Positions 1,828-25,016 of a DNA stretch of 27,628 nucleotides are shown here, piece by piece (the stretch's first letter is position 1; every line of letters starts with the position of its first letter). This DNA comes from Deltaproteobacteria bacterium. Its GTDB lineage: Bacteria; Myxococcota; Kuafuiibacteriia; Kuafuiibacteriales; Kuafuiibacteriaceae. The notes under the pieces were generated by a model that worked only from the letters and a program-made list of their open reading frames with translations, was not told the origin of the DNA and ran no database searches. A program made the position numbers and the translations under genes. The stretch covers positions 1 to 27,628 of the forward strand of contig JAVJQW010000021.1 in assembly GCA_040218735.1 (NCBI GenBank), read 5' to 3'.

Positions 1828-2480
1828 CAGACCTCCACGAAGGCCGCCGCGCCCACCAACCCGAAGTACAACCCCCAAAAACACAACACGGTCCACACCG
1901 CTGCCGCACCGATGAAGAAGGTCGACGTCGAAGGCACCGGTCGACGCTCGTGAGGCGGATCCGTCACCGACGCAATCGCCAAGTTCTGACCGAGCTGACG
2001 CGCATCGAAACGACGCTCCAGCGACGCCCGCGGGACATCCGCGACCCACGCCGCAATCTCCAACGCATCGACACCCGAAACCCCATCACGGGACAACGCC
2101 ACCAACACCGCCCGGGCCTCCTGCTCGCGCGCCTCGCGCTCCTCCCGACGACCTCTCCACCGCGGCACGACAAAACCCACGATGACCAACAACACCGCCA
2201 CCAAGGGCAGGTACGTCGCCGGCGACGATGCGCCCGGCGCCAACGACGCCAAGTCACCCAACGCCCGCGCACCCAGTACCGCCGCCGCCAACGTCGACAG
2301 CGCCGTCGCGACGCGCCACGTCGCACGCTTCGCCGGCGCAGACGCCAACGACGCCGTCACCTCGACGAGCCTGTCCGCCACCGCGTGCGGCGAATCCAAA
2401 CCGCGCACGCGCCTGACGATTTCATCGCCGCCGTTCTCGTGGAGCCCCACCACGATCTCACTTGCGCGCAGGACACTCAT
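1824..2480 (-). CDS. inner-membrane protein with a type II secretion system F-like domain (TadB/TadC-like platform protein)
   Basis: Segment AVLVALSRDGVSGVDALEIAA resembles the T2SS-F hallmark (L..LL.aG.sl.eAL). Hydrophobic helices in the middle and at the C-terminus. ATGA-coupled inside the pilin operon. Confidence 0.4.
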   Translation of the reverse strand: MSVLRASEIVVGLHENGGDEIVRRVRGLDSPHAVADRLVEVTASLASAPAKRATWRVATALSTLAAAVLGARALGDLASLAPGASSPATYLPLVAVLLVIVGFVVPRWRGRREEREAREQEARAVLVALSRDGVSGVDALEIAAWVADVPRASLERRFDARQLGQNLAIASVTDPPHERRPVPSTSTFFIGAAAVWTVLCFWGLYFGLVGAAAFVEVW

Positions 2481-3433
2481 ACGATCGAAACTCCGAGCCG
2501 CGCCGCATTCAGGATGACCGGGTGCGCCGCCATGAAGACCGCCGCCACCAACAACGCAAACCCGAGCGCCGAGATGACCGCTCCCAAGTGATTCGTTCGG
2601 TCTACCGTCAACGCCACGCGCCGGACACGCTCCAGCACCGCGAGCTCGTCCTCACCCTCGAGACGCACCGCCACGTTCTGCACCTCGACCGGCTCCTGCC
2701 GCGCCCACGTCCGCACCACGCTCATCACATCCGCCTGTGACTTCGCCTCGGACCACAACCGCTGCGCCGAGGTCTGACCCATCGCCGGCGTTGGTATCCG
2801 CCGGAGCAGCTGCTCACCCGCGACCCCCGCCACGGACGCCGCGCCCAACCAACCCAACAACGCATCGAGCCCCGCTGGCTCGCCCATACGCCGCGGAATC
2901 GGGAGCCCCGTGCGCGCGAGGAAGTCATCGTCGAGCATCATCACGCCCAACAAACCTGTCTCCGCCAACGCCCGCGCCGACATGCCTCGCGAAGCGCGCG
3001 CGATACCCACGACCCCCAGGACCATCGCCAGCCCCGCCAACACCGTGACCGCCGTGCCGTTGTAGGCGACGACCCCCGTACCTGCGATCTCCGCGAAGAT
3101 CGGCGCGACGAACTTCCCGACCACCGACCCCAACGCCATCGTGAACGCACCGCCGAGGAAGAGGCCGGTGGGGTGGGTCGCCGCCCGCGGCGCGCTCGCC
3201 CGCGGACGCAACGCGCTCAACATCCACTCCGCACAACGACTCCGCGCCTCCGCCGGACACACCGACAACAGCGCCGGCACCGCACGGGGCGCCAACCCGG
3301 CGGAAGACACGTCGGTCACGCCCAGCGGCGCCAACGCCTGCTCCAGCGTCGCACCCACCGCCAACGCACCGAGCACCGTCCGCGTTCGCTCCGACGCAGT
3401 CCCGGCAGTCGCCCGACTCGAACGATCCGTCAC
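2477..3433 (-). CDS. inner-membrane protein with a type II secretion system F-like domain (TadB/TadC-like platform protein)
   Basis: N-terminal TRTVLGALAVGATLEQALAPLG matches the T2SS-F motif. There are several TM helices (GLFLGGAFTMALGSVVG, VLAGLAMVLGVVGIA, ISALGFALLVAAVFMAA). GTG start 1 nt after the pilin stop, with GGGGGAG upstream. Confidence 0.45.
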   Translation of the reverse strand: MTDRSSRATAGTASERTRTVLGALAVGATLEQALAPLGVTDVSSAGLAPRAVPALLSVCPAEARSRCAEWMLSALRPRASAPRAATHPTGLFLGGAFTMALGSVVGKFVAPIFAEIAGTGVVAYNGTAVTVLAGLAMVLGVVGIARASRGMSARALAETGLLGVMMLDDDFLARTGLPIPRRMGEPAGLDALLGWLGAASVAGVAGEQLLRRIPTPAMGQTSAQRLWSEAKSQADVMSVVRTWARQEPVEVQNVAVRLEGEDELAVLERVRRVALTVDRTNHLGAVISALGFALLVAAVFMAAHPVILNAARLGVSIV

Positions 3434-3434
3434 G

Positions 3435-3893
3435 TTACTCCCCCGGCTTCGTCACGCTGAGGGCCATCGTGTCGCCGTCGTAGCGATACTCCGAGCGCTC
3501 ACCGTCCTGGTCCAGGTCCCCCGTCGCGAACACCACGAACGCGTCGCCCTTCGTCTCGACGCGATACTGAAACCGCATCTTCCCCTCCGGCTCGAAGCCG
3601 AGCTCCTGCCACTGGGGCATCGACTCGAAGAGCGCGAGCGGCGCGGGCACCTCGCGTGGGTTCGCAGGACATGCGATCGGGCGCCCACGCTCGAGGATCG
3701 TCACCTGCTGCAAGTACGCGATCGTCTCGAGGTTGACCGCAGCCTCCGTCGCGCGAGCGCGGTCCAGGTAGACGCGGTACGTCGGCACCGCGAGGCTGAT
3801 GAGTATGGAGATGACCGCGAGGACGCTGGTGAGCTCGAGGAGCGTGAAGCCACGGGGCGTCTTTCGGCGGGGCACTTTCGACAACGTAGCCAT
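3435..3893 (-). CDS. type IV pilin-like protein (prepilin-type N-terminal domain, major pilin candidate)
   Basis: Leader MATLSKVPRRKTPRG|FTLLELTSVLAVISILISLAV: a positively charged leader, G|FTLLE with Glu +5, and a long hydrophobic helix. The C-terminal half is compatible with a pilin globular domain. Confidence 0.7.
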   Translation of the reverse strand: MATLSKVPRRKTPRGFTLLELTSVLAVISILISLAVPTYRVYLDRARATEAAVNLETIAYLQQVTILERGRPIACPANPREVPAPLALFESMPQWQELGFEPEGKMRFQYRVETKGDAFVVFATGDLDQDGERSEYRYDGDTMALSVTKPGE

Positions 3894-3906: not shown

Positions 3907-4500
3907 TCAAGGTGAGCGCGTGAGCACCTTCTTGATTCGGTGCTGTCCGACCCACGCCTTCTTGTTCGACTCCGTCGCCGTGACCTCGATCGAAGTCAGG
4001 TAGGTGCGCACCGCCTTACCCCCCGCCTCGTCGTTCTGCGAGACGATCCAACCGTTCATCAGGAAGTCCGCAGCCGTCTCGAGGCCCTGACTCTTCGCCG
4101 TCTCGTCGCTCGCATTCTCGGCCTGGTCCGCGCGCTCGTCACGCATCGCGTCGGCCTCCTCCATGCTGCTCACGACCTCGACCTGTCCCGAGTTGATCAG
4201 CGCCGCCTCGATCTGCTTCGTAAAGTACCGGTAGTCCAGGTACCCGTCCGTCTTGTTGCGCACCGGCGCGAGCCGCACCACCGGCTTTCGCCCCGCCTCC
4301 TTCGCGAACATCTGCGCCCACGGGCTCGTCAGACACTTCACGATGATCGCCTGCGCCACCGCGTCCGCGTCGACGTCGTTCCACTCCCCCGACAAATCCA
4401 GCGCCTCGTTGGTTCGCTCGATCTTCGGCCCCTCCGCCGGTGGGGTCGACGAAGCACAAGCGCTCGCGAGCAGGAACAGCAACGGAGTCGGACGACGCAT
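3907..4500 (-). CDS. LpoB-family lipoprotein (penicillin-binding protein activator LpoB-like fold)
   Basis: Lipobox LLASAC. Blocks align, from my memory of E. coli LpoB, as follows: SGEWNDVD vs YDWNGAM; KPVVRLAPVRNKTDGYLD vs LLVDSVNNRTNGSLN; QIEAALINSGQVEVVS vs TLRNALANNGKFTLVS; LTSIEVTATESNKKAWVGQ vs LQMQLMLVQTGEIIWSGK. Confidence 0.7.
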   Translation of the reverse strand: MRRPTPLLFLLASACASSTPPAEGPKIERTNEALDLSGEWNDVDADAVAQAIIVKCLTSPWAQMFAKEAGRKPVVRLAPVRNKTDGYLDYRYFTKQIEAALINSGQVEVVSSMEEADAMRDERADQAENASDETAKSQGLETAADFLMNGWIVSQNDEAGGKAVRTYLTSIEVTATESNKKAWVGQHRIKKVLTRSP

Positions 4501-4555
4501 GCTGCGGACGTTAGGTCACTCCGGCGCCTCACGAAAGTCCGCTATCATCCGCCGC

Positions 4556-6055
4556 GTGAGAGCAGCCCCCATCCTCGTCGCCGCCGCGACGCTCCTCCCC
4601 GCGGTCGCCCACGCCGACGCGGTCCGCGTCGTCTACCGCGTCGAGGCCGACGTCGGGTCGTGGCAGCCCATTCAGCCGACCGACCTGAAGGCCGCCATCG
4701 AGCACGCCGCCCTCGAAGTGCTCACCAAACCCGGGCTCATGCGCCTCGACCGACGCCGCGGCCGCGGCGTGAAACAAGCCGAAGGCGCCTATGAGCTCAC
4801 CATCGCCGGACAGCTCCTCGGTGAAGCCGAGACACATACGGTTTATCTCTCCTTCGGCCCCGGCACCGAGCACGACGTGCCCTCCGTGAACACGTCCGAG
4901 ACCGTCGTGCTCACCAAGCTGAAGCGCGGCCAGATGCTCGAACGAATCGAGAAGAGCGCACGCGAAGCGGCCGCACGGCTCGTGAAGATCCTCGCGCCCG
5001 AGCTCCGCCGCGCGGGCAACGACGCTCCCCCCACCACCCCCGCGTTCGAAGGGGTCAAGGAGTGGCCCTGGAGTTGGTCCGAAGTGCGTGTCCCGCGTCC
5101 GCGGCTCGGGACCAACGGCAAGGACCTCTACAGCAAGAAACACGATCGCCGAAAGCGCGCGCTCCGCGTGCTGACTTCGCTCGCGCTGCAGGAGTCGTCA
5201 CCGCGACAGATCCTCGAGAAGTGCGCGCTCGACCACTTCGACGACGAGACCCGCCGCGGGTGCCTCGAAGCCCTGCGCCCCCTCGCGATGAAACACGCAC
5301 CGACGCGGCGGATCGTCATCGAGGTCTTCCGACGCGACAAGGAGAGCCGAATCCTCCAGGAGGCGATCGATCAGATGAAGTACTTCGAGGGCCCCTCGCG
5401 CGAAGCGGCGGTGCAGGCGTGGCTGGAGGCCGCGTCCCTCGGCAAGGGCTACGGCCCGCTCGCGAACCTCGGCGACATGCCGAACCTCGACCTCGCGATC
5501 CGCAAGTGCCTCGTCGCGCGCAACCAGAAGAAGAACGACTACTCGCGCCGCCCGCACACGTGCATCGAGCTGCTCGACCCCGTGCCCTACCGTCGGCGGC
5601 GCGCGATCCTCTGGCGCTTCGTCCGTGAGATGAAGCCGGACTCACCGTACTACCTCGAAGGGCTCGGCGAGCGCGAAGGGAGCAGCGGCACGGCGTGGGG
5701 CAACGCGGTGAAGGCGCTCCTCGAACCCGCGCAGGCCTGGGACCCCGCGTTCGAAGAGGTGCTGTGGAACCGCTACCAACGGACCCTGTCGTCCACCGCG
5801 CGCGACGCGCTCTGCTCTTGGGCGCCCGCGTCGAAGAAGGGCGTCGAACGACTCCTCGAGATCCTGAAGACCACCGGTGAGAGCCGCGCGCTTCGCGGGC
5901 TCGAACGCATGGGGAAGAGCGACCCGAAACACGCCGGACCGATCAAGGACGCGCTCGCCGAGATGCTCGCGATCGGCAGCTTCCCGAAGGACGTCAGCCG
6001 CTCACACCTGGAGCGCACCATCAAGGCCATCGAGCGCGCGGAGGCGAAGCGATGA
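4556..6055 (+). CDS. secreted protein, paralog A: novel N-terminal about 130-aa domain plus HEAT-like repeats
   Basis: A GTG start gives the Sec signal VRAAPILVAAATLLPAVAHA|DA. An in-frame ATG at 4499 is an alternative start but would overlap the divergent lpoB-like start codon. The C-terminal half has HEAT/PBS-lyase-like repeats (CALDHFDDETRRGCLEALRPLAMKHAPT..). It shares its architecture and the VYLSFGPG motif with the next gene. Confidence 0.6.
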   Translation: MRAAPILVAAATLLPAVAHADAVRVVYRVEADVGSWQPIQPTDLKAAIEHAALEVLTKPGLMRLDRRRGRGVKQAEGAYELTIAGQLLGEAETHTVYLSFGPGTEHDVPSVNTSETVVLTKLKRGQMLERIEKSAREAAARLVKILAPELRRAGNDAPPTTPAFEGVKEWPWSWSEVRVPRPRLGTNGKDLYSKKHDRRKRALRVLTSLALQESSPRQILEKCALDHFDDETRRGCLEALRPLAMKHAPTRRIVIEVFRRDKESRILQEAIDQMKYFEGPSREAAVQAWLEAASLGKGYGPLANLGDMPNLDLAIRKCLVARNQKKNDYSRRPHTCIELLDPVPYRRRRAILWRFVREMKPDSPYYLEGLGEREGSSGTAWGNAVKALLEPAQAWDPAFEEVLWNRYQRTLSSTARDALCSWAPASKKGVERLLEILKTTGESRALRGLERMGKSDPKHAGPIKDALAEMLAIGSFPKDVSRSHLERTIKAIERAEAKR

Positions 6056-7548
6056 TCCTCGAGTTGCTCACGATGATGACCATCGCGTCCGCCGGGGAGC
6101 CGGCGGCGGTGCGCTACGCGGTGAAGGTCGAGACACGCTCCTGGGAGCCGATCGCGATCAAACAGGTCGAGAAGTTCGTCGAAGCGGCGGTGACCGCCGA
6201 GCTGTCGAAGACCAAGTCGATGCGCCTCGAGCGCGCTTCGTTCGCGGACGTGAGGAAGGGCGACTACTCGATCGCGATCCTCGGGCGCTTCGTCGAAGAA
6301 GCGGAGCGCTTCAGCGTCTACCTCACGTTCGGGCCGGGCGCGAAGGACGACCTCCCGACCTACTTCGCGAGCGACACCTCCGAGCCCCTCGGCCGACAGA
6401 AACGCAGCGTGATGCAGGCGCGCATCGACGCCGCCGCGCGCCGCGCGGGGGAGCGGTTGGCTCAGGTCGTCGGGCCGGCGCTCGAGAGTGTTCGGCTGCG
6501 TATCGATCCGCTGCCGATCGAGGAGCCGGACCTCCCGGTGCGGTGGGGTGAGGTCGACGTCCCCGAGGTCACGACGAAGGACAAGGCGATTCGTGACCTC
6601 CTCGACGTCCGCAACCCGGACCACGTTCGCCACAAGGCGCTCACCAAGATCCAAGGTTTTGCGTTCGACCAGCAGGTGGCGCGCAACGCGATCGAGCGGT
6701 GTGTGTTGTTCGACCCGCTCGCGGATCTGCGCGCACGGTGTGTGAAGGCGCTGGCGCCCATCGCGCGCGCGCACGTCCCGACGCAACGTGTCTTGCTCCA
6801 CGCAATGCGCGTCGACGTCGACGACAACGTCCTCGCCGCGCTCACCGACGTGTCGAAGGGCTTCGTCGGACTGTCGCGCCTGGAGACGCTCTCGACGTGG
6901 CTTCACCTCCTCGCCCGCCCCGGCACCCCGGAGCGCGCGGCCGGGGCCATCGCGCAGCTCGTGGCGAGGGAGGAGGAGGTCGCCAACCTCGAGTTCGCGG
7001 TGGCGGCGTGTCTGCAGCAGGACATCGTCGAGACCTCCAAGCGCTACGACTGTGCGCGGTATCTACTGAAGCGATTGCCGCGGAGCCGCCAGGTCGCGGC
7101 CGCGTGGTCCTACCTGCGCGAGGCGAGTGTCTACGGGACGGGGGAGAAGCTCGCGTACGAGGCGGTGCTCGACGTCATCGCGCCGCGTGCGACGCGCGAG
7201 CCGGTCGACGATCGTGTCCCGCAGCTCCTCCTCGATCTCGCGGAGCGTCGCGCCACCGGGCACGTGCGGTACGCGCTGATCTACCGCGCGGGGGACCGCG
7301 CGCCCGCGACGCCCGCGACGATCGAACGGCTCCTGAAGATCGCGCACGACCAAAAACACGCGACGGCCGCGATTCGCGCGGCGGTGGAGGTCGCGGACCG
7401 CGGAGAGGATCTGCTCCCGATGACGCTCGGTGGGCTGAAGCAGCTCGAGAAGAAGGCGCGCTGGTTCCCGCAGCCCTCGCGCGGCAACCCGTACCGCGAT
7501 CTCGCGAAGGCGATCGAACGCGTGGAGCGCAAGCTCGAGAAGAAGTGA
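6052..7548 (+). CDS. paralog B of the preceding gene (novel N-terminal domain plus HEAT-like repeats)
   Basis: ATGA overlap with paralog A. Collinear similarity: VRYAVKVETRSWEPI vs VRVVYRVEADVGSWQPI; MRLER vs MRLDR; VYLTFGPGAKDDLPT vs VYLSFGPGTEHDVPS; HEAT-like CVLFDPLADLRARCVKALAPIARAHVPT; C-terminal KAIERVERK vs KAIERAEAK. Confidence 0.6.
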   Translation: MILELLTMMTIASAGEPAAVRYAVKVETRSWEPIAIKQVEKFVEAAVTAELSKTKSMRLERASFADVRKGDYSIAILGRFVEEAERFSVYLTFGPGAKDDLPTYFASDTSEPLGRQKRSVMQARIDAAARRAGERLAQVVGPALESVRLRIDPLPIEEPDLPVRWGEVDVPEVTTKDKAIRDLLDVRNPDHVRHKALTKIQGFAFDQQVARNAIERCVLFDPLADLRARCVKALAPIARAHVPTQRVLLHAMRVDVDDNVLAALTDVSKGFVGLSRLETLSTWLHLLARPGTPERAAGAIAQLVAREEEVANLEFAVAACLQQDIVETSKRYDCARYLLKRLPRSRQVAAAWSYLREASVYGTGEKLAYEAVLDVIAPRATREPVDDRVPQLLLDLAERRATGHVRYALIYRAGDRAPATPATIERLLKIAHDQKHATAAIRAAVEVADRGEDLLPMTLGGLKQLEKKARWFPQPSRGNPYRDLAKAIERVERKLEKK

Positions 7549-8456: not shown

Positions 8457-10316
8457 TTACAGCCCGACCGCCTCGAGCTCTTCTTCCTCGGTCTCCGTCA
8501 ACGCCGCCATCTCGCGGAACTTCACGTTCGAGCGGCACAGCTCGTCGTAGGTGCCGATTGCCACGACTTCGCCCTGTTCGAGGAACACCAGCCGGTCGCA
8601 CCGCTTCACCGTCGTCAGCCGGTGCGCGATGATCAGGAGCGTCTTGTCGCCCTGGAGCGTCTCGATCGCGCGGCTCATCTCGCGCTCCGTGCGGTTGTCG
8701 AGGGAGCTCGTCGCCTCGTCGAACACGAGCACGTCCGGCCGCGAGTAGAGCGCGCGCGCCACCGCGACGCGCTGCCGCTCACCCCCGGAGAGCCGCAGCC
8801 CCCGCTCGCCGACGGTCGTCTCGAGCCCGTCCGGGAGCCGCTCCACGAATGGCTCGAGCTGCGCCATCTTCACCGACTCCGCGATACGCGCCTCGTCGAT
8901 GCGCTCGTCGCGCACGCCCAGCGCGATGTTGCGCCGTAGGGTGTCGTCGATCAGGTAGATCGACTGCGGCACGAAGCCGATGCGGCGCTGCCACCGGCGC
9001 ACGTCGTCGTGGATGTCCACGCCGTCCACCGCGATGCGGCCGCCGCTGGGTTCGAGGAGGCCGAGGATCAGATCGACGAACGTGCTCTTGCCCGCGCCCG
9101 TCGCGCCCACGATACCGATCGCCTCGCCGCGGTCGATGTGGATCGAGACGCCCTTCAGCGCTTCGCGCGCGCCGGTCGGATAGCGGAACGTGAGGTCTTC
9201 GATGTCGATGCTGTCGGTGTAGGGGAGGGGCTCGACGTCCTCGCCGTGCAGCTCGTCGTTCGACGCCAGCACCGACTGCCAGTCCTTGTGGATCTCGTCG
9301 ACGGAGACCGCGCCGTAGCGAACCGAGTTCACGAAGTACACCATGCGGTGCAGCGACGGCATGATCCGAAAGCCCGCGTACCCGAACAGTCCCAGCAGCG
9401 GCACGATCTCCTGCGCGGCCCCCGCGGAGTGAAACGACACGATCACCCCCGTCACCCCGAGCACGAACAACGTCTCCACGAGGAGCCGCGGCGCCTGCTC
9501 CAGCGCGCTGCGCCGCCACATCAGCCGCGACGCGTCCATGCGCAGCACCTCGAAGCCCTCGTAGAAGTACCGCTCGCGCCCGAGGACCTTCACCTCCTTC
9601 ACGCCGCCAAGGCTCTGGTGAAGGTTCGAGAGGATCTGCGCCGACAGCGCATGCATCTGTTTGCCCCAGCTGCGGAACTGGCGGTGCGTCAGCTTGAGGA
9701 GCAGCCAGAAGAGGCCGCCCATCAACACGCCGGTCGCGAACGTCACCCCCGGCGCCGCGACGACGAGGACCGCGAACACCGCGAGCGTCAGCATCATCTC
9801 GGTGATCATCGAGACCCCCGCGACGAGCACGCTGCGGAACGCGGCTTCGACGGACGTGCTCACGTTGCGGATCAGCTCCGCCGAGTTGCGCGAGAAGTGG
9901 AACGCGTACGGCGCCGACAGGTAGCCGCGCAACAGACGCGACGACAGGGACGCGACGGAGATCGCCGCGCGTTTGTTCGCGATCCAGACCTGCACGAACA
10001 ACATCGAGTTCTTCGTGACGTAGAAGAGCGCGACCGCCCCCGCGAACGCGATGACGAAGCGCCCTTCGCTCTCGAAGCCGAGCAGGTCGTACGCGCGCGA
10101 CAACGACGGCTGCGTGTGGATGCGCGAGGGCTCGTCGATCACGCGGATCAGCCCGAAGATCAGCGCGGCGCCGAGGGCTTCGAAGCCCGCGGTCACCAAC
10201 GAGAGGGGGATGAGGAGCGCCCAGCGTCGCCGCTCCTTGGCGTCGAGGAACCCGAGGCAACGCTTCACCGCGACGAAGGAGCTCGTGGGCATCTCGATCT
10301 TCGCGTCGTCGCTCAT
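8457..10316 (-). CDS. ABC transporter, fused permease/ATP-binding protein (type I exporter, MsbA-like)
   Basis: An N-terminal 6-TM domain is followed by an NBD with Walker A GATGAGKST, ABC signature LSGGERQRVAVARAL, Walker B VLVFDEATSSLD and H-loop IIAHRL. Confidence 0.85.
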   Translation of the reverse strand: MSDDAKIEMPTSSFVAVKRCLGFLDAKERRRWALLIPLSLVTAGFEALGAALIFGLIRVIDEPSRIHTQPSLSRAYDLLGFESEGRFVIAFAGAVALFYVTKNSMLFVQVWIANKRAAISVASLSSRLLRGYLSAPYAFHFSRNSAELIRNVSTSVEAAFRSVLVAGVSMITEMMLTLAVFAVLVVAAPGVTFATGVLMGGLFWLLLKLTHRQFRSWGKQMHALSAQILSNLHQSLGGVKEVKVLGRERYFYEGFEVLRMDASRLMWRRSALEQAPRLLVETLFVLGVTGVIVSFHSAGAAQEIVPLLGLFGYAGFRIMPSLHRMVYFVNSVRYGAVSVDEIHKDWQSVLASNDELHGEDVEPLPYTDSIDIEDLTFRYPTGAREALKGVSIHIDRGEAIGIVGATGAGKSTFVDLILGLLEPSGGRIAVDGVDIHDDVRRWQRRIGFVPQSIYLIDDTLRRNIALGVRDERIDEARIAESVKMAQLEPFVERLPDGLETTVGERGLRLSGGERQRVAVARALYSRPDVLVFDEATSSLDNRTEREMSRAIETLQGDKTLLIIAHRLTTVKRCDRLVFLEQGEVVAIGTYDELCRSNVKFREMAALTETEEEELEAVGL

Positions 10317-11632
10317 TCCTGCTTTCTCTGCAGCTCCACGAAGATGCGGTACTCGCCGGTGGGATCACGTTGGATCTCTCCGACCCAACGCTCGAAGTAC
10401 GGGCTCTTCAGCTCCACCGCGACGCGATCGTCGAGGGTGTAGGGCAGGTCGATCGCGAGCGGCGTCTTGCCGAGGATGTCCTGGCCGAACAGCACGAACA
10501 CCCCCTCGGGGAGGGTGTCGACGTTGACGCGGGTCGGTGTGTTGCTCGGACGCATCGGCGCCGCAGCCGGCCCGGCCAACGAGAAGAATCGCATCTCGAC
10601 GTGCCGCTGCTTCTTGTCCCCCGACGTGAACAACATCGCCAGCGCGGTGATCGTTCCGATGATCACGAACGCGGCGAGCGCGACGGGGATCGCGCGCGCG
10701 GCGGCGTCGGTGTGCGCGACGAGGCGGTGGATGTCGTCCGCGTTGGCGCCCTCCGAAGGGCGCGACTTCTGCTGAACGACGGGGCCCGGCTTCTTCGCGT
10801 CCTTGCTCTTGCCCGGTTTGCCCTCGTCGTCGAGGAAGGGCATCAGATCGATCTCGTCGTTCGGCGAGTGCGGAATCTCCATCGTTTCCTTCACGATGCG
10901 AGGCTCGCTCGACGGGTCCGCAGGGGTATTGGGTTTGCTGGCGGACGGTGCCATCCCGAGCTGCGCCGCGAGATCCAGCATCGTCTCGCTCCCGGACCGA
11001 CGGGGCGGACGCGGCGGCGACGGCATCCGCTCGGCGGCGCTGACCTTGCGGCGGGTGATCTTCGGCGGCGCCTTCTCGATCTCCGGCAGCGACCCTTCGT
11101 GGAAGAGGTCGTACGGGATGGGCGCCTTCATCGTGCGCTCGTGACTCGCCGGGCGTTCGTCGACGGTCTCCTCCGCAGGGTTCGATCCCGGACGCACCGT
11201 CTCCTCGTGATCACCGTCGGTCAGCGTGGGGACCGGCGTGTCGTAGGGCATCGGCGTCTCGTCGAGCGCATCGACGCCGCCGGGTGCGGTGGTCGGGAAG
11301 TCCTCGTCGTCCGAACCGGTGTCTTCCTCGTGCGGAGGCTCGGCGACGACGTGCGGCTGCGAGTCGAAGACCGGCGCGGGCGCGCGGATGGTCATCTCGG
11401 GCGCTTCGTCCAGTCCCGGACCGACGACCTCGTCTTGGATCGCGACGTTCTCCAGGAGCTGGTCCCGCGACAACGCGTTGAGCGCGGCGTTCACCTCGAT
11501 CGACAGGTCGCGGTCGATCACCGTCATGTTGTTGTCCGCCGCCGGCCGCTCCTCGGTGTCGCTCTTGTCGGTGTTCTCGTCGAAGACGAGTGACCAGCCG
11601 CGCTGCTTCTTGTCGTCTTCTCGTTTGGTCAT
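10313..11632 (-). CDS. single-pass membrane protein: acidic disordered N-terminal region, TM helix, C-terminal PEGA-like domain
   Basis: About 300 aa of low-complexity D/E/P/T-rich sequence precede the TM IPVALAAFVIIGTITALAMLF. The C-terminus PEGVFVLFGQDILGKTPLAIDLPYTLDDRVAVELKSPYFERW fits a PEGA-type beta domain. Its stop overlaps the ABC gene start (ATGA). Confidence 0.55.
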   Translation of the reverse strand: MTKREDDKKQRGWSLVFDENTDKSDTEERPAADNNMTVIDRDLSIEVNAALNALSRDQLLENVAIQDEVVGPGLDEAPEMTIRAPAPVFDSQPHVVAEPPHEEDTGSDDEDFPTTAPGGVDALDETPMPYDTPVPTLTDGDHEETVRPGSNPAEETVDERPASHERTMKAPIPYDLFHEGSLPEIEKAPPKITRRKVSAAERMPSPPRPPRRSGSETMLDLAAQLGMAPSASKPNTPADPSSEPRIVKETMEIPHSPNDEIDLMPFLDDEGKPGKSKDAKKPGPVVQQKSRPSEGANADDIHRLVAHTDAAARAIPVALAAFVIIGTITALAMLFTSGDKKQRHVEMRFFSLAGPAAAPMRPSNTPTRVNVDTLPEGVFVLFGQDILGKTPLAIDLPYTLDDRVAVELKSPYFERWVGEIQRDPTGEYRIFVELQRKQE

Positions 11633-15633: not shown

Positions 15634-17025
15634 CTAGAACTCGTACCGCACACACGCGTACTCGAAGTTGATGCGCGGGTAGTGATACACGAAGTTGAAG
15701 CACATCTCGTCCGCCGAGCCTTCACCCCATTCAACGTCCTGATTCTGCGTGTTGTACTCGCAGCGCGTCCGCAGGCGGTCGCCGGACTGGAGCTGCTGGT
15801 GCTCCGGGGCGATGTCGACGTTGGGCTGATCGTTGAAGTCCCACGCCTGGATGTCGACGAGGCTGATCCACTCCGTCGAGCCGCTGCGCTGCAGCTCCAG
15901 CGAGATCTTCGTCCCGGTTTGGTGCAGGTGCGGGAAGACCGAGAAAATCGTCATGTTCTGGCTGACGTTCCAGGTCTGCGTCTTCACCTCGGCCGGCCCG
16001 TTGATCGAGCCCTGCCAGATGTTGCCGCACCAGAGCATGCCGGCCTCTTCGAGGTTCGTGTCGTCCGTGAGGATGACGCGCGCGCCGCTGTTGTCGGTCT
16101 GGTTGCCGTCCGAGACGCTGTCGTAGTGGACCTGCAGGATGAGCTGCTCACCCTGCGCAATCGGCACGCCGGCGCCGCGCGGGATCTCGTCTGCGGTGCG
16201 GCCGGGCGCCCAGCCCGCGACCATGTTCCAGGACAGCTGCACCGACCCGCAGTCGAACGGCACACCCTCCGGCTCGAGCTGGCCCGTGTTCTTGAACAGC
16301 AGCGTGTGGTGCGTGTGCGCCGTGTTGTCGATCAGCGGCTCGAACCGGAACATGTACTCCTGCCCCGTCGCGTTGCCGGCCGGGACGGTCAGCGCCCAGC
16401 AGCGGTAGTTCGTCGTGCGCTGCGGCAGCTCGTAGGGGTCAGTGCTGTTGGGCTGCGTCGCGCGGATCTCCAGCACGCGAGAGACGGTGCGGGTGTCCGG
16501 TTCGCCACCGTCGCGTGGGACGTCGCCGCCGTCGCGCGTGTCGACGCCGCCGTCACGGTCCGGCGAAGGCGGCGTGCCCTCGGGCGCGCCGATCTCGGAC
16601 CACAGCGTGATGAGCGCGCGCTCCTCGTCGGTGAGCTGCGGCTGGCTGGGCGGCGGCATGCGCTGCTGCGAAGCGTTGATGCGCGCGGCCATGATCTCGT
16701 GCACCGGCGTCCCCGCGCTCGCGACCTGGGTGTGGTCGTAGTCGACGAACGGCCGGGGCGCTCCGAACTGCGGCGGCTCTGCGTGGCAGAGCTGGCACTT
16801 CTCGGCGACGATCGGCTGGACGTCCTGCCACCACGTCACCTCCGCGACGCCGCCGTCGCGCGGATCTTCGATCGTCTCGCCGGCGTCGCGCGGGTCCTCG
16901 ATCGTCGGGCCGCCGTCGCGCTCGACGGGCGGTTCGATCGTCGTCTCGGGCGTGGATTCGCAGGCTACGAGGGCCACGAAGGAGAGGCCGGCGATGAGCT
17001 TCGTCGCGGTGGGATGCACGGGCAC
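15634..17025 (-). CDS. lipoprotein fusing a c-type cytochrome domain (CxxCH) to a PHM/DBH-like copper type II monooxygenase domain
   Basis: Lipobox FVALVAC. WWQDVQPIVAEKCQLCHA is a Planctomycete-type cytochrome c motif with CxxCH. The C-terminal domain aligns to peptidylglycine alpha-hydroxylating monooxygenase with all six Cu ligands: AHTHHTLLF (HH), LILQVHYD (H), FPHLHQTG (HxH) and ADEMCFNFVYHY (Met in EMC). A GTG start is inferred; 17019 is an alternative. Confidence 0.7.
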   Translation of the reverse strand: MPVHPTATKLIAGLSFVALVACESTPETTIEPPVERDGGPTIEDPRDAGETIEDPRDGGVAEVTWWQDVQPIVAEKCQLCHAEPPQFGAPRPFVDYDHTQVASAGTPVHEIMAARINASQQRMPPPSQPQLTDEERALITLWSEIGAPEGTPPSPDRDGGVDTRDGGDVPRDGGEPDTRTVSRVLEIRATQPNSTDPYELPQRTTNYRCWALTVPAGNATGQEYMFRFEPLIDNTAHTHHTLLFKNTGQLEPEGVPFDCGSVQLSWNMVAGWAPGRTADEIPRGAGVPIAQGEQLILQVHYDSVSDGNQTDNSGARVILTDDTNLEEAGMLWCGNIWQGSINGPAEVKTQTWNVSQNMTIFSVFPHLHQTGTKISLELQRSGSTEWISLVDIQAWDFNDQPNVDIAPEHQQLQSGDRLRTRCEYNTQNQDVEWGEGSADEMCFNFVYHYPRINFEYACVRYEF

Positions 17026-17090
17026 GGATGTTAGACCGCCGGACTGCTCCCGACCTGTCGGAAAAATGACCGGCGAGGGTGAGTCCCTAC

Positions 17091-17885
17091 CTACCTGCGG
17101 ATGAGCTCCCCGACCACGTACGACGCCATCAGCTCGTTCACGACCGGGATGCGCATCAGGACCGGCGCGAGGAGGTCTCGCGCGGGGAGGCTGGAGAAGG
17201 TCACGTGCTCGAAGCGCCCGACGTCGAAGTCGTGCCGCCCTACCAGTGTCTTGAACGGCGCGACGTTGAGCTGGTTGATGTAACCCTGCTCGGCGAACGA
17301 CGACCACGCGCGCCACTTGTTGGGCATCAGGTTACCGTCGTCGTCGTAGTTCCAGGGGCGGAGGACCTTCTCCTCTTCGTCGTAGAGGCGCTCGGCGGTG
17401 CGGAACAACGCCTTCTCGCCGAACACGAAGTGCGCCCAAGGTATGGGAATCATCGCCTCCATGTGCGGCGCCCACGGCGAACGGTACGGGCACCACTCCA
17501 GGAGGACTTTGCCGCCGGGACGCAGCACGCGGCGCCACTCGCGGACGATGACGTCCGGCTCCATGACGTGCTCGATGACGTCGAACGCGAGGAGCGTGTC
17601 GGCGCAGGCGTCGGGGAGGGGGATGCCGTCCGGCGAGCCCTGGACGAACGAGACCTCGGTCTCGCCGAAGTCCTGTGCCTCGGCCTGCCGCTGGCACTCG
17701 GCGGCGGAGGGGCCGTGCAGCTCGACGCCGACGATCGATCGCGGCTTCCGCTCGGCGAGGTAGAACGTGAGGTTCCCTTTGCCGCTCCCGAAGTCGATGA
17801 CGTCCTTGCCGGCGATGTCGTCGTCCGAGAAGTGCCGCCACGATCGCGCGAGCGCTTCGCCGCGCCAGGCGACGTACTTGTCCAT
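17091..17885 (-). CDS. class I SAM-dependent methyltransferase
   Basis: Motif I VIDFGSGKG, acidic residue ending beta2 (VGVEL), motif II LLAFDVIEHV, motif III LRPGGKVLL. The upstream part of the track ORF is a Ser/Thr/Arg-rich shadow of the VanZ gene. An alternative GTG start lies at 17963. Confidence 0.7.
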   Translation of the reverse strand: MDKYVAWRGEALARSWRHFSDDDIAGKDVIDFGSGKGNLTFYLAERKPRSIVGVELHGPSAAECQRQAEAQDFGETEVSFVQGSPDGIPLPDACADTLLAFDVIEHVMEPDVIVREWRRVLRPGGKVLLEWCPYRSPWAPHMEAMIPIPWAHFVFGEKALFRTAERLYDEEEKVLRPWNYDDDGNLMPNKWRAWSSFAEQGYINQLNVAPFKTLVGRHDFDVGRFEHVTFSSLPARDLLAPVLMRIPVVNELMASYVVGELIRR

Positions 17886-18030: not shown

Positions 18031-19263
18031 ATGCTCGGCGCCGTGACGCGGCGGTGGCTCGTGCTGTGGTGCGTCCTCGTCGCGCTCGGGACGCTGCACC
18101 CGTTCGTTCTGGATCCGCGCCCGGTCGTGGTGCCCTCCGACTCGTTCTTCGTGCCGCGCTTCAAGGGGCTCGATCCGCCGTTCAACGTGCTGATGTTCGT
18201 GCCGCTCGGGGCGCTGCTCTCGCGCCTCGGGTTGCGCACCGCGATGGCCGCGCTCGTCGGGTTGCTGGTGAGCGGTCTGATCGAGCTGTCGCAACACTTC
18301 ATCGCGTTTCGGGTGCCGGTCTTCGAAGACCTCGTCTTCAACACCGTCGGTGCGGCGTTGGGGGCGCGGGGGGTGCACGTCGTGGAGCGCGTCGGCCGCT
18401 TCGTGGAACGACACCTCCGCGTCCCAATCTTCGTGGTGACGACGGGGGTCGTCGTGTGGTCCGCCGCGCCGCCGCGCGTCGACGCGCGCCTGTGGTACTG
18501 GGCGGACTACGCCGAGCTGATCGTCGGGCGCGAGCAGCCCGGCAACTACGCCTACGCCGACGAGGTCCACGCCGCGCGACTGTACGCGGGGGCACACGCG
18601 CCCGATGCGCTCCCAGAAGCGATCTGGTCGTACGGCGTCGACGACGAAGGCCGCTTCCCCGCGATCACCGAACGCATCGAGGCGACGGGCGCGTTCACGA
18701 TCGACGTCGACTTCGACGCCGCACCCCGCGACGAGCTCCTCCGACGCATCTTCACGTACTCGGCCGGGGTGCAGCGCAGGAACTTCCTCTTCGGCGCGCG
18801 CGGGGACGAGCTCGTGTTCCGCGTGCGCACGCGCGTCACGCCGATCGTCGGGCTGTTCACCAACCTCGAAGAGCCGTTGACGCTCCCGCGTCCGCCCGGA
18901 CGTGCCCGCGTCACGATCGCTTACGACGTCGGCGTGGTTCGCGCGTGGGTCGACGGTGCGCCCGTCGCGACGAAACACTTCAAGCTCCCCGAGCACAACG
19001 GCGTGCGGACGTTCTGGCTGCCGCGCGACGCGCTCGGCGTGTGGCTGTTTTGGTTCTCGGCGGGGCTGGTCGTCGCAGCGGGGGCGGCGTTCCTGAGGCG
19101 ACGCTGGGCGATAGCGATCGCGCTCGGGATCGGCGTCGCGTTGGAGATCGCGCAGGTCGTGATGTTCGACCGCGCGCCCGATCTCACCGCCGTCGTTCCA
19201 CTCGTCGTCGGCGCGATGCTCGGCGCATGGTCAGCGCGAAGCCGAGCCACAGCAGACCCGTGA
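18031..19263 (+). CDS. VanZ-family membrane protein with a central beta-rich domain and two C-terminal TM helices
   Basis: The VanZ-like N-terminus has 4 helices (WLVLWCVLVALG, FNVLMFVPLGALL, LVSGLIELSQHF, LVFNTVGAALG). C-terminal TMs GVWLFWFSAGLVVAAGAAF and AVVPLVVGAMLGAW. Alternative GTG start at 18007. Confidence 0.6.
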   Translation: MLGAVTRRWLVLWCVLVALGTLHPFVLDPRPVVVPSDSFFVPRFKGLDPPFNVLMFVPLGALLSRLGLRTAMAALVGLLVSGLIELSQHFIAFRVPVFEDLVFNTVGAALGARGVHVVERVGRFVERHLRVPIFVVTTGVVVWSAAPPRVDARLWYWADYAELIVGREQPGNYAYADEVHAARLYAGAHAPDALPEAIWSYGVDDEGRFPAITERIEATGAFTIDVDFDAAPRDELLRRIFTYSAGVQRRNFLFGARGDELVFRVRTRVTPIVGLFTNLEEPLTLPRPPGRARVTIAYDVGVVRAWVDGAPVATKHFKLPEHNGVRTFWLPRDALGVWLFWFSAGLVVAAGAAFLRRRWAIAIALGIGVALEIAQVVMFDRAPDLTAVVPLVVGAMLGAWSARSRATADP

Positions 19264-21253
19264 TCCCCGACGGCGTGCGCGTCGTGTTCGTGCAGGCGCA
19301 ACCGTCCTCCGCCTCCGGGGGCGACGGCGTGAGGAGCGGTGGTCGTACGATACGCCCGCCGTCCGCGACGCCGCCGTCGGCGCTCGGGCCCGCGTCGCGT
19401 CCCACGCTCCCGTCGTCGGGTGGGGCGGCGTCACGGCTCTCACCGGAGTCCGGCACGCCGCCGTCACGCATCATCACCGGCGACAGCAAGAACAGCTCGC
19501 CGTAGCGCTCCGGCTCCTTGCCGGCGCCGATCCCCGCGGTCCACTCCGTCCACCCGACGCGCCCGGCGCCGTCGGCGTCGTTCACGAGGAACGAGAACCC
19601 GATCAGCTCGCCCGCGAACCACGACGCCTGCGGCAGCGTCGCGTGGGGGATCGCGATCTCGTAGCTCGTCGTCGTCCCCTGGCGCATCGACACCACGCTC
19701 ATCGTCGTCGGGCCCGTGCCCTGTTCGCGGAACACCCGCGTCGTCGAGCCGTCCGTCGAACGTGCGTAGGTGAGCTCGTGGTCGTCGGCGTCGTAGCCGG
19801 TCCCGCCGGTCTGCAGCGGATCGAACGCGAGCTGCACGCTGTCGCCCATCCACATCGTCTCGAGGGGGGCGTCGTTGTCGTGCACGTCGTCGGTGACTTC
19901 GATCCCGAAGTAGAGGTTCGTCGCATCCCACGCGGCGGCGATGCGCACGGCGTGGTCGTCCGTACCGAGCTCTTCGGTGCCACGCCACGACGTCGTCGGG
20001 ACGGGCATCCACCCCATGAGCTCGGAGGGGTCGCCGTCGATCGTCGGCGTCGCGACGGGGAGGCTGATGCGCATCCGCGGCGGGTCGTCGGACTCGTCGT
20101 CGTCCTCCGCGCCGGAGCACCCGCGGTCGTCGCCGTCGACGCGCCCGTCTCCGTCGTTGTCGACGCCGTCGCCGCACTCGGGAGGTGGCGTTGCGCTCAC
20201 CACCGCGGGGTTGTCGACGATGAACTGCTTCAGCGCGGCGAAGGCCGGCTTGAGTCGGAAGTCGCCAGGGAAGTTGCGTTGCCCCGCGACGCCGCCGGTC
20301 GGGCGCATCAAACCGAACCCATCGATCGTGCACGTGGGCTGGTCCACGCCGCAGTCCGTGACCTCGTAGAAGAACGTGTTCGTGACCCACGCGCGCTGCA
20401 GCTGTTCTTCGAGCGCGCGCCGCACGTAGATGGCTTGCAGCTGCTCCTCACCCGCGTCCCCGATCGGCGTCGCGCGGTAGCCGGTCTCGGTGATCCACAC
20501 GTCGCCCGTCCAGCCGGCGTCGTCGAGGAGCTGGCGGAGGTCACGTCGCGTGAACGTGAAGCGCTGGTCGTCGAGGACGTTGATGTAGCTGTCGCCTTCC
20601 CAGATGCGCCAGCCGGTCTCCTCGAAGTCCTGGTAGATGTGGTGCGTGATGATGTCCCACGCGCCGGGTGTGCGCGTGAGGACTTCTTCCAGCGCGTCGT
20701 CCGCGTCGCCGACGTTCGCGAGGTCCGGCCCGAGCACCACGCAGTCCGCGCACGCGGCGCGCAACGCGGCGGCGCCGGGGTTCACGATGATCGTCGCGTA
20801 CTCTTCGAGCGAGCCCTCCCAGAAACCTTGGAGGTTCGCTTCGTTCCACAGCCCGAAGTGTGTCACGCCGAGCGCCCGGTAGTGCGTGACCGCGTTGGTG
20901 ACGAAGTTGGTCCACTCCGTCGAAGCGTTCGGGACGTCGTTGCCGGCGTTGCCGTCCGAGTCGCCGTGGCGCGGCACCCAGCTCGGCGTGTACGCGAGCG
21001 TGAGGTAGACGTTCAGCCCGGACGCGACCGCGTCCGACACCGCGGCGTCGAGGAACGTCCACTGGTAGACGTTCGGCGCGGTCTCGAGCTGGAACCAGTT
21101 GGCGTCCATCCGCACCCACGTCACGCCGAGGTCCGCCGCAGCATCGATGAACGCGGGCGTCCCGTTGTGCACGTTGAGGCCGACGTCGTTGTCACCGGGC
21201 GCCGCGAGCGCCGAGGCGGGGAACAGGAGCAGGAGGAGGGCCGCGCGTCGCAC
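19184..21253 (-). CDS. secreted clan GH-A glycoside hydrolase (GH5/GH39-like TIM barrel) with CBM9-like domain and MYXO-CTERM-like sorting tail
   Basis: A GTG start gives signal VRRAALLLLLFPASALA. The catalytic-region motif is GLWNEANL. The C-terminal beta-sandwich resembles CBM9 (WDATNLYFGIEVTDDVHDND..DSVQLAFDP). The tail is DGCACTNTT..GITGLLWLGFALTMRRASRRRR: a Cys motif, a hydrophobic helix and an Arg-rich end. Confidence 0.7.
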   Translation of the reverse strand: MRRAALLLLLFPASALAAPGDNDVGLNVHNGTPAFIDAAADLGVTWVRMDANWFQLETAPNVYQWTFLDAAVSDAVASGLNVYLTLAYTPSWVPRHGDSDGNAGNDVPNASTEWTNFVTNAVTHYRALGVTHFGLWNEANLQGFWEGSLEEYATIIVNPGAAALRAACADCVVLGPDLANVGDADDALEEVLTRTPGAWDIITHHIYQDFEETGWRIWEGDSYINVLDDQRFTFTRRDLRQLLDDAGWTGDVWITETGYRATPIGDAGEEQLQAIYVRRALEEQLQRAWVTNTFFYEVTDCGVDQPTCTIDGFGLMRPTGGVAGQRNFPGDFRLKPAFAALKQFIVDNPAVVSATPPPECGDGVDNDGDGRVDGDDRGCSGAEDDDESDDPPRMRISLPVATPTIDGDPSELMGWMPVPTTSWRGTEELGTDDHAVRIAAAWDATNLYFGIEVTDDVHDNDAPLETMWMGDSVQLAFDPLQTGGTGYDADDHELTYARSTDGSTTRVFREQGTGPTTMSVVSMRQGTTTSYEIAIPHATLPQASWFAGELIGFSFLVNDADGAGRVGWTEWTAGIGAGKEPERYGELFLLSPVMMRDGGVPDSGESRDAAPPDDGSVGRDAGPSADGGVADGGRIVRPPLLTPSPPEAEDGCACTNTTRTPSGITGLLWLGFALTMRRASRRRRVERRR

Positions 21254-21303
21254 GCGTACCTCATGCCGTCCCTGCGCCGTTACGTCGACCGTCGATCGTC
21301 GGT

Positions 21304-24300
21304 TCAGTACCGCCAGCGAACCTCGAGGTAGTCCGCGGCGATCGCGCCGTCGCCCCCGGCGGCCGTCGTGAGGTTCGCACGACACCCGATCCGAGCGCGC
21401 CCGTCGCCGCCGATGATGGCTTGGGCGAACGTCGCGGCGTCGGCGATCGACGGCGCGAACTCGAGTGACGATGCCGACGGGCTCGCCGTCGTGTTTGTGC
21501 CGAGGTCGGTCGTCGTGGTGCCCGTGAGAACGTAGAGCGCGGCGCCGTCGCCCGTCACGCCGTACCCGGCGAAGCTCCCGCCGCAGGACGCACGCACCCT
21601 CACATCCTCGAGCGCGGCGACGCTGACGTTCGAAGGGAGCGCGGCGGACAGCTCGGTGCGCGGATCGACGGGGAGCGCGAGCTCCCAGGTGTCGTCGGCC
21701 ACGCCGTCCAATTGGCTGATGTCGAAGCCGCCGTGCACGATGAAGCGGCTCCGCGCGTCGTCGAAGACGAGGTTGCTCAAGTGGCGCGCCCGCGGGATGC
21801 GACCGACGGACGGCATTCGCAGGGACCAGTCCGCGCCGTCGTACGCCCAGACCTCCGTGTGGGTGATCCGCATGGCCATGTCGAACGTGGTCGATCCGCT
21901 GAACAGGACCAGCTCCCGACGCGCCGGGTCGTACGCCAGCTTTCCGCGCTGTGGTGGTGCGTTGGCCGTGACGACCTCCGTCCAGGTGGACCCGTCCCAC
22001 TCCCAGGTGTCGGTCCGTTGGTAGCCGCCGTACAGGACGACACGTTCGCGCACGGGGTCGTCGCCGAGCGCGGCGTACAGTCGCGACGGCGGGTTCGTGC
22101 CGACGGGCGTGACGTCGGTCCACGCCGCGCCGTCCCAGGTCCAAGTGTCGCCGTTTCGGTCGAAGAGGAGCGTGACGCCGCGCGCGGCGTCATACGCTGT
22201 TGCGAGGAACTGCGCCGGGGGCCTCGCGCCCGTCGCCGGCGTGATGTCGGTCCAGCTCGTCCCGTCCCACGCCCACGTCGCGACGAGGCTGCTCCCGGTC
22301 CGCGTTCCGAACGCCGCGACGTGCCCTCGCGCCGCGTCGTACGCCGCGTCCGCCACGAACGTCGCGGACGGCGGGCCCGACGCGACCTGGTTCCACGCGT
22401 TGCCGTCCCAGATCCAGGTCTCATCGACGTCGAGCGTCAGCGTCTCGAGCCGCGCGGCGTCGTACACCACGGGGCCGTCCACCTCGACGGGGCTGGTCTC
22501 GACCGGGGTCACGTCTGTCCACGCGACGCCGTCCCACGTCCACAGATCCGTATGTTCGAAGAACGAGTTCCCGCCGTACAGCACCACCCGGCCGATGCCG
22601 GCGTGGTACACCATCGCCGCGCTCTCGCGTGGTTCCGGGCGAGGACCGACCGGCGTCACCTCCGTCCACGAAGTCCCGTCCCACTCCCACACGTCGTCGA
22701 GGTAGTTCGGCGTCGCGTAGCCGCCGGCGAGCACGACGACGCCACGCCCGGCGTCGTAGGCCATCGCTTGCCCCGAGCGCGCGCTGGGACGTGGACCCGC
22801 CGGATTCTCGAGGCTCCACGTTCCGCCGCTCAGCGTCCACAGCTCGTCGGGGCCCTCTCCACCACCGAACACGACGAGCTCCTGCCGAGCGACGTCGAAC
22901 GCCATCGAGTGTCCCGCCGTTCGTGCGGGGGCACCCGTCGTCGGGACGACCGACCAGTTCGTGCCGTCCCAGCTGTAGAGGTTCCTGTCCGCCGGGACGC
23001 CGAAGTCGATGAAGCCGGCGAACAGGACCACGCGAGCGAGGACCGGATGGTAGGCCATCGCGTGGAATTCGCGTGCTTCCGGCGGCGTGGTCGGGGTGCC
23101 GAGGAGCCAGCGTGTGCCGTTCCACATCCAGGTGTCGTCGCGTGAGGGGAACGCGTCGCCACCGAACAGGACCGTCTCGCCGCGTTGCGCGTCGTACGCG
23201 ATCGACGTGAGCTGCCGGCCGTACGGGCGCGGCCCCACGGGGGTGCGATCGGACCACACCGAGCCGTCCCACTCCCAGACGGCCTCGTCGGTCCACACCA
23301 CGGTGTGAACCAGCCGGTCTCGCTGCGCGTCGTAGGTGAGCGTCGGGAAGGTGTCCGCGTGGGGGTTGTGGCGCTCGGCGACGCGGTACCACACGTCGTC
23401 GGGCGTGTGGACGAGGACCGACGTGTCGCGCGCCGCGACGCTCGAGGTCACGATCGGTGCGCCGATGTTCGACCCGTCGCCGAACGCAAACGTGTGCGGG
23501 CTCGCGGCGAGGTCCGCAGACGAAGCGACGTACCACGAACGTTCGATGCGAACCGGCTGGGACGGTACTTCACTCGCGCCGATCGCGACGACGTCGACGT
23601 AGGCGGCGTCGCTCGATGCGAGCGCGAGGTCCACGCGTGACCACGAACCGTCGGCGGCCGGGAGGATCCAACCCGACACCGGCGCGCCCTCTGCGAACAC
23701 ACGAATCGCCGCGGCCGGTCCGCTCGCGAGGGCGAACGTGTCCGGCGGGAGCGCGGCGACGTCCTCGAGCTCGTCCAACGGAGCGAGGGTGTAGCGCGCG
23801 GGCCCGGCCGGGATCGTGAAGCTGCCGAGATCCTCCGCGGTGAGGTTCACGTGCGGCGCGCGCACGTAGCTCACCTGATCCTGGTCGACGAGCAAGGTGG
23901 GCGCTGACGTCGCGATCTGAAACGCGGCCGTGGCGGTCACGGTGTTCCCCGCGCGATCCTCGAGGAGCTCGGCGACGGCGTACGTACCGTCGGCACCTCC
24001 GAACGCCGCGGTGATCTGCGCGGCGTAAGTCGCGCCGGTCGGCGAAGCGCTCCCGGTGATCTGCGTGAGGGTGAGGACGTCCGCGCCGTTCGTCGCGTCG
24101 ATCGTGGCCGGCAGCGCCTCCAGCGGTTCGTCGGCGTCGAGCGCGACGCTCACGGTGCTCCCGATCGTCGCCACGTCGAGCGTCGGCAGCACGACGCCGA
24201 CGTTCGGCGCTAGCGCCACCATCGTCGTGACCTCGGGCGACCGGGTGTCGAGGACGAGCTCGAGCTGCACCGGAGCAGAGGTCTGTCCGATGGCGTCCAC

Positions 24301-24888: not shown

Positions 24889-24971
24889 GCTCGCTTTCAA
24901 GTGCCGGCCGGCGCCTTGGCGTTCAATGCGTTTGACGCCGGGTGCGTTGTGGCCACCTTGGGCCTTCCGCC

Positions 24972-24990
24972 GTGCGGCGTCCAGCCGCAC
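24972..24990. promoter_or_regulatory. perfect 7-bp stem / 5-nt loop hairpin (gtgcggc gtcca gccgcac) in the divergent intergenic region, 27 nt upstream of the vWA gene ATG
   Basis: Inverted repeat read from the sequence. It lies between the Kelch start (24888) and the vWA start (25017). The SD AAGGGAG sits at 25003-25009. Confidence 0.2.
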
Positions 24991-25016
24991 AATTCCACAT
25001 CGAAGGGAGCCCACCC

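Follow-up and report, generated by a model that had tools for sequence, protein, structure and literature searches.

A stretch of 27,628 nucleotides (hereafter the window; G+C content approximately 68%) from contig JAVJQW010000021.1 of a deltaproteobacterium assigned to the Myxococcota (Kuafuiibacteriaceae; assembly GCA_040218735.1) raises the question of what two adjacent genes, encoding similarly sized proteins of no recognizable family, might do together. Gene A (4556..6055, plus strand) starts with GTG and encodes 499 amino acids, and gene B (6052..7548, plus strand) starts with ATG and encodes 498 amino acids. The stop codon of gene A and the start codon of gene B share an ATGA overlap, exactly as a sequence-only reading of this DNA had described. 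An alternative ATG is located upstream of gene A at 4499; the homologs begin at the GTG position instead. The two products are full-length paralogs in which structure models place an alpha/beta N-terminal domain ahead of a HEAT-like solenoid, and their genes are kept as a pair in nearly all loci read of a narrow family. The reading preferred here, to which a probability of approximately 0.45 is assigned, is that A and B may form an obligate, fixed-ratio hetero-complex that serves as a scaffold in the periplasm and is docked to a lipoprotein.

The sequence-only reading regarded the two proteins as collinear paralogs with a shared N-terminal domain, and both parts of this claim withstood proper alignment. 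BLASTP aligned A and B collinearly with 30% identity over 444 amino acids (E 2e-38), and a profile-profile comparison of the A family with the B family gave a probability of 100 (E 5.9e-77) over 470 columns that include the N-terminal domain. The motifs V.V.Y.VE...W.PI, MRL.R and VYL[ST]FGPG..D.P quoted for this domain are present in the BLASTP alignment and are kept across the family. Both window proteins also contain the C-terminal KAIER motif, although neither family conserves its residues, which are kept in 3-30 of 42 A-family and 8-29 of 36 B-family sequences. The A and B subfamilies each have their own invariant residues, and A in addition has a loop of its own, a Gly-rich segment at approximately residues 361-381.

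The gene order was read in 13 distinct loci. In 12 of them, the B-type gene stands immediately behind its A-type partner, the exception being a locus (L005) at which a truncated relative of 418 amino acids (P0059) stands alone. The start and stop codons overlap by 4 nt in the window and at L001, L003, L016 and L017, by 1 nt at L004 and by 8 nt at L014. Adjacency with a stop/start overlap is found in every locus that holds both genes, including those of a distant clade with 22-25% identity. This clade is also paired, with 612-659 amino acids encoded by the upstream gene and mostly 511-543 by the downstream one, and the four subfamilies are mutually 22-28% identical. In the two distant-clade loci at L014 (2546..9199) and L016 (5256..11917), the upstream gene encodes 644-659 and the downstream gene 529-543 amino acids.

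This conserved arrangement bears on one alternative, namely that A and B have diverged into two binding proteins, periplasmic or secreted, which independently bind different ligands, and that their adjacency reflects nothing beyond tandem duplication and co-regulation. The identity of only 28-30% between A and B, the invariant residues particular to each subfamily and the loop of A would suit such a division of labor. Short relatives that carry the N-domain (P0144-P0148), of which P0147 is seen as a single gene at L015, also speak for it. On the other hand, neither gene has been lost and the overlapping arrangement has been kept in every two-gene locus down to 22-25% identity. Simple co-regulation seldom preserves such pairing, which therefore weighs against independent action, and this explanation is considered unlikely.

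Structure models were generated with AlphaFold2 fed with the family alignments, and reached a pLDDT (predicted local distance difference test) of 90.4 and a pTM (predicted template modeling score) of 0.86 for A, and values of 91.2 and 0.87 for B. Both models show the same succession of an N-terminal hydrophobic segment, an N-domain, a linker and a solenoid. The N-domain (residues 23-152 of A, 4622..5011; residues 18-148 of B, 6103..6495; both plus strand) comprises approximately 130 amino acids and is modeled with a beta-alpha-beta-beta-beta-beta topology that ends in a long helix. It is followed in both proteins by a linker of non-regular structure with conserved Pro and Trp residues, which in A covers residues 153-185 (5012..5110, plus strand) and carries the conserved pattern PW.W..V.VP. 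Fold matches of the N-domain were CsgG (scores of 9.7 for A and 9.7 for B), PelC (8.8 and 9.2), HpaA (8.7 and 9.6) and the flagellar LPHT-ring protein (8.6 and 9.3), while CT253 (8.9) was found in the list for B and not in that for A. Identity to all of these is 6-14%, and ribosome hibernation factors score about equally, so that the fold assignment is to be read with caution. PqiC-, LptE-, PelC- and CsgG-like outer-membrane lipoproteins have been grouped by a shared alpha/beta core, and the Foldseek table of the same study also contains entries for FlgT, HpaA and CT253 (PMC13631591, 2026). The fold hits obtained here are shared with these groups and therefore support the faint resemblance to LpoB/TolB-N-type alpha/beta folds that the sequence-only reading had suspected. 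The modeled N-domains have the alpha/beta core of this group, but A and B differ from its members in having no lipobox cysteine and no sequence similarity to them, and in the fusion of the core to a HEAT-like solenoid of approximately 320 amino acids. Furthermore, A and B occur as a heterologous pair and not as a homo-oligomer.

The C-terminal part of both proteins is, according to the models, a HEAT-like solenoid (residues 186-498 of A, 5111..6049; residues 178-497 of B, 6583..7542; both plus strand), in which 16-19 helices form tandem helix-turn-helix repeats that stack as an alpha-solenoid and reach the C-terminus. The helical repeats expected from the sequence are thereby borne out, and solenoid structures were also among the structural matches. 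The repeats do not fall into a named family. Neither window protein matched Pfam (PF13646 and related HEAT families, at the gathering score, included), NCBIfam or PADLOC. HEAT_2 matched 10 of 42 A-family relatives with a best E value of 4e-6, and those relatives whose scores were seen fell below the cutoff. A search of the A-family profile against the PDB sequences returned nothing, the B-family profile gave only weak matches to designed helical proteins, and Foldseek against the PDB gave only generic ARM/HEAT matches with a low TM (template modeling) score. Accordingly, no well-characterized family or structure in these collections covers either protein from end to end, and the N-domain remains without an assignable family, as had been stated in the sequence-only reading.

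Pairs of adjacent paralogous genes that encode HEAT-like proteins are also known from the bilin lyases CpcE and CpcF, which act on phycobiliproteins as a heterodimer. By this model, A and B could be a periplasmic heterodimeric enzyme or attachment chaperone that acts on a periplasmic substrate and is not a passive scaffold. The E/F lyases are cytoplasmic and cyanobacterial and have neither a signal peptide nor an alpha/beta N-domain, whereas A and B carry predicted export signals, are found in Myxococcota and match no Pfam repeat family, and thus do not qualify as E/F lyases. The HEAT_2 matches of some relatives are generic, other solenoid matches score about equally and likewise represent generic scaffolds, and the neighborhood of the pair shows neither a conserved cofactor-binding motif nor a conserved gene for a candidate substrate. 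An enzymatic role modeled on CpcE/CpcF is hence rather improbable. YibA and other bacterial HEAT_2/PBS-lyase-like proteins offer no closer parallel, as they are generic, have no assigned common function and are devoid of the N-domain, the signal peptide, the conserved cysteine pairs and the gene pairing.

Predicted export signals and conserved cysteines point to a location outside of the cytoplasm. The N-terminus of A (residues 1-20, 4556..4615, plus strand), MRAAPILVAAATLLPAVAHA/DA, reads as a Sec signal and agrees with the clean signal previously ascribed to this paralog. B starts with a hydrophobic, uncharged segment and an A-S-A site (residues 1-14, 6052..6093, plus strand), and B-type N-termini in general are hydrophobic with an A-x-A or A-x-G site. 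Among the distant-clade proteins, those encoded by the downstream gene carry canonical Sec signals. A and B are therefore both predicted to be exported. No lipobox cysteine was found at the cleavage site in 42 A-type and 36 B-type N-termini. Four cysteines (residues 223, 236, 318 and 336 of A; 217, 230, 320 and 334 of B) are all present in 119 of 127 full-length members. In the other eight, which all belong to the distant long subfamily, the equivalents of Cys 223 and Cys 236 of A have been lost together and those of Cys 318 and Cys 336 have been retained. Each pair lies on adjacent helices of the A and B models, approximately 90 residues away from the other pair. The joint loss of one pair with retention of the other fits two separate disulfides and therefore an oxidizing compartment, and each protein probably contains two disulfides, as judged from the pattern in this one clade. 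A single metal site formed by all four cysteines was considered and judged unlikely, as the first pair can be lost without the second and the two pairs lie approximately 90 residues apart in the chain.

The candidate docking partner is encoded directly upstream. A gene for an outer-membrane lipoprotein of 197 amino acids (3907..4500, minus strand) matches the LpoB family PF13036 (E 2e-29) and carries the lipobox LASAC, which is invariant in the alignment of its orthologues; it thus has both the family match and the lipoprotein signal expected of an LpoB-like lipoprotein. It is adjacent to gene A and divergent in the window and at L001, L003, L006, L007, L009 and L013. Orthologues are located on 37 contigs of at least 5 kb, 25 of which are equal in length to contigs from the A/B list and were taken to be the same contigs. 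The LpoB-like gene thus accompanies the pair often, though not always. In the distant clade, a gene for another lipoprotein of 211-214 amino acids occupies the divergent position, so that the divergent upstream gene encodes a lipoprotein in both clades. Homology between the two lipoproteins was rejected, as only the lipobox aligns. Homology of the A/B N-domain to the neighboring LpoB-like protein was likewise rejected at the sequence level (hhalign probability 0.3%).

The family of this neighbor suggests a role in the cell wall, in which the pair and the lipoprotein together would regulate or position peptidoglycan synthases in the manner of E. coli LpoA and LpoB. LpoA consists of a helical TPR-like domain and a globular domain. 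Both LpoA and LpoB are outer-membrane lipoproteins that contact peptidoglycan synthases, and they are reported to be conserved in gamma-proteobacteria only (PMC12132463). While the PF13036 match and the shared contigs would agree with such a role, the LpoB-like protein scored 68.9 against TIGR02722, below the cutoff of 110.55, and thus does not count as an LpoB equivalog. No gene for a penicillin-binding protein or any other cell-wall function is conserved near the pair and the LpoB-like gene is missing at several loci, which makes this role very unlikely. Equally hard to sustain is the proposal that the pair is an accessory of polymer or lipid export, with a core ring beneath an outer-membrane channel and the solenoids as a periplasmic rail, on the pattern of PelC with the TPR part of PelB or of PqiC with PqiB: the fold neighbors PelC and CsgG, and PqiC and LptE of the same group, work in this way (PMC13631591; PMC12141448), and genes for an ABC exporter and for a membrane protein with a PEGA domain are convergent downstream of the pair in the window and at L001 (the PEGA-domain gene also at L007 and L013), but the exporter is found in two lineages only, the conserved neighbors of the pair include no gene for a beta-barrel, an MCE protein, a glycosyltransferase or a synthase, and A and B are not lipoproteins.

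The region between the two divergent genes spans 55 bp (4501..4555), precisely the gap that had been noted before. A -10-like TATCAT hexamer on the plus strand (4543..4548) ends 7 nt before the start of gene A, and a matching element, TAACGT, is found on the opposite strand (4513..4508), 7 nt before the ATG of the LpoB-like gene. Neither of the divergent genes has a Shine-Dalgarno site, and related loci show the same arrangement. In 9 of the 13 loci, the distant L014 and L016 among them, a TAnnnT hexamer precedes gene A and ends 7-9 nt ahead of its start codon. Of 11 high-GC loci, 7 have this hexamer beginning 12-15 nt before the start, where chance would give 0.5% per position (P of approximately 2e-14 by a naive binomial calculation). 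Gene A and the LpoB-like gene are thus probably transcribed from back-to-back leaderless promoters, as suggested by these sequence patterns, and two such promoters would account for 30-57 bp being able to serve both genes. No full sigma-70 consensus promoter was found for the operon. A search for an intrinsic terminator yielded a single terminator-like site on the minus strand inside gene B, which is probably due to chance. At the junction of the pair, gene A contains at its 3' end a Shine-Dalgarno-like GGAGG (6040..6044, plus strand), which precedes the ATG of gene B by 7 nt, and a GGAG-type or GAGGG sequence is present 5-9 nt before the start of gene B in all six junctions inspected (window, L001, L003, L004, L014 and L016). 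At L013, gene A and the LpoB-like gene are separated by an expanded region of approximately 420 bp (9579..10001), which contains arrays of the hexamers GTGATC/GTGGCC and, farther on, of their reverse complement GGCCAC/GATCAC, with the potential to form a long hairpin.

The scaffold reading can be set out as a sequence of steps. Gene A would be transcribed leaderless from the -10 element that abuts its start codon, and gene B would be translated from the Shine-Dalgarno sequence within the end of gene A across the overlapping stop and start codons. Leaderless expression of A combined with coupled translation of B would therefore mean that both proteins are made together in a fixed ratio. Following export to the periplasm, A and B may assemble via their alpha/beta cores, and the resulting hetero-oligomer would be a dimer or else a mixed ring. 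This hetero-complex would act as a scaffold whose solenoid grooves hold a partner protein or a polymer, and a separate lipoprotein would dock it at the outer membrane, namely the LpoB-like protein in the main clade and the unrelated lipoprotein in the distant clade. Precedents for assemblies of related cores include the octameric ring of PA3214 and the plug formed by LptE (PMC13631591), as well as the 12-mer ring of PelC, which docks the TPR scaffold of PelB (PMC12141448). The PelC ring with its PelB scaffold is the nearest working analogy, with the difference that both elements are present here in one chain. A more elaborate version appears doubtful, in which A, B and the lipoprotein constitute a new outer-membrane-associated machine of this Myxococcota lineage, with a mixed core ring in which the lipoprotein subunit alone is lipid-anchored, and with two kinds of disulfide-braced HEAT arms that extend into the periplasm and guide or hold a polymer or protein as cargo.

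Several observations weigh against a docked hetero-complex scaffold. The LpoB-like gene is absent at L004, L010 and L011, and the lipoprotein that takes its place in the distant clade is unrelated to it in sequence. The signal of B usually has no positive charge. A and B have no lipobox, unlike almost every characterized member of the fold group. The eight proteins that have lost a cysteine pair constitute one subfamily and may go back to a single evolutionary event. The net charges of A and B vary widely and show no complementarity. Finally, polar residues of the solenoid are very highly conserved, which could indicate an enzyme and not a scaffold.

The wider surroundings of the pair are variable. 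An all-against-all comparison of the open reading frames (ORFs) from the 13 loci identified only A, B and the LpoB-like gene as widely shared. An ABC exporter, a PEGA protein and a Ser/Thr kinase are encoded near the pair in two to four lineages. The PEGA protein of the window (10313..11632, minus strand) has 439 amino acids, with a C-terminal PEGA domain, a long, acidic low-complexity N-terminal part and one hydrophobic segment; its gene shares 4 nt with that of the ABC exporter and has relatives at L001, L007 and L013. Behind the LpoB-like gene, the window encodes a pilin-like protein (3435..3893, minus strand), which bears a prepilin N-methylation motif, and a protein of 318 amino acids without a family match (2477..3433, minus strand). 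These two genes and a gene for a 218-amino-acid protein are common to the window and its close relative L006 only. The place of the pilin-like gene is taken at L007 (3333..9293, minus strand) and L013 (3737..8944, minus strand) by a giant ORF, encoding a bacterial alpha-2-macroglobulin lipoprotein of 1735-1986 amino acids with bMG10, A2M_BRD, A2M and MG2 domains. A link between the pilin-like gene and these giant ORFs was rejected, as their products are unrelated to the pilin-like protein. In the distant clade, two convergent Band_7 (SPFH) genes are located downstream of the pair at L014 and L016. Farther away in the window, a gene for a protein of 560 amino acids (15634..17316, minus strand) contains both copper type II ascorbate-dependent monooxygenase domains (PHM/DBH-like), and is also found near the pair at L001. 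Two ORFs at 19184..25062 (minus strand), encoding a CBM9 protein of 986 amino acids and a Kelch beta-propeller protein of 1252 amino acids, overlap as listed by approximately 840 bp; the true start of the CBM9 ORF (19184..22144) is probably a later codon than the one listed.

The distribution of the family was determined by a profile search for the domain with the VYLxFGPG motif. The N-domain profile alone detected 59 proteins at E <= 1e-3 among 1.84 billion representative proteins, nearly all of them members of the A/B family. The hits comprise subfamilies A and B, the distant paired clade and five short proteins; the remainder consists of two very large proteins (P0139 and P0143) with repeated short partial matches. 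The five short proteins (P0144-P0148, 359-392 amino acids) have a weakly matching N-domain and an NW[FY]PL motif, and one of them shows a weak TPR_2 match; P0147 is encoded at 2216..3295 of L015. One B-type protein of 702 amino acids at L017 (P0106, 2109..4217) has a Pro-rich linker and is extended at the C-terminus by approximately 150 amino acids. This extension looks beta-rich in sequence, has no Pfam match and may represent either a membrane anchor or an artefact of read-through. Overall, approximately 59 A-type and 40 B-type clusters were obtained, all of them unnamed and derived from metagenome-assembled genomes (MAGs) of Myxococcota or "Deltaproteobacteria" and from metagenomes. A scan of 185,579 species-representative genomes yielded only eight loci, each of them in a MAG of the Myxococcota. 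No paper on the A/B family and no name for it was found in the literature. The family is therefore narrow and confined to uncultured Myxococcota, and the description of the pair as an undescribed, presumably periplasmic system holds for the libraries and papers searched. The alpha/beta core and the HEAT fold are both already known; what has no description in these libraries and papers is their combination, in which a non-lipidated core is joined to a HEAT arm and the genes come strictly in pairs.

Characterized proteins with the CsgG/PelC/LptE/PqiC core are mostly lipoproteins that form rings or plugs in outer-membrane transport. The A/B family appears to present the same core in another form, which is not lipidated, continues into a long HEAT-like arm and in every case has been duplicated to give two distinct partners. 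The practical value is modest for a very narrow family with no cultured host known. If A and B do form a hetero-oligomer that is docked to a lipoprotein, this would represent a new way to build periplasmic scaffolds and would offer a first way into the function of a gene pair that is conserved in uncultured Myxococcota.

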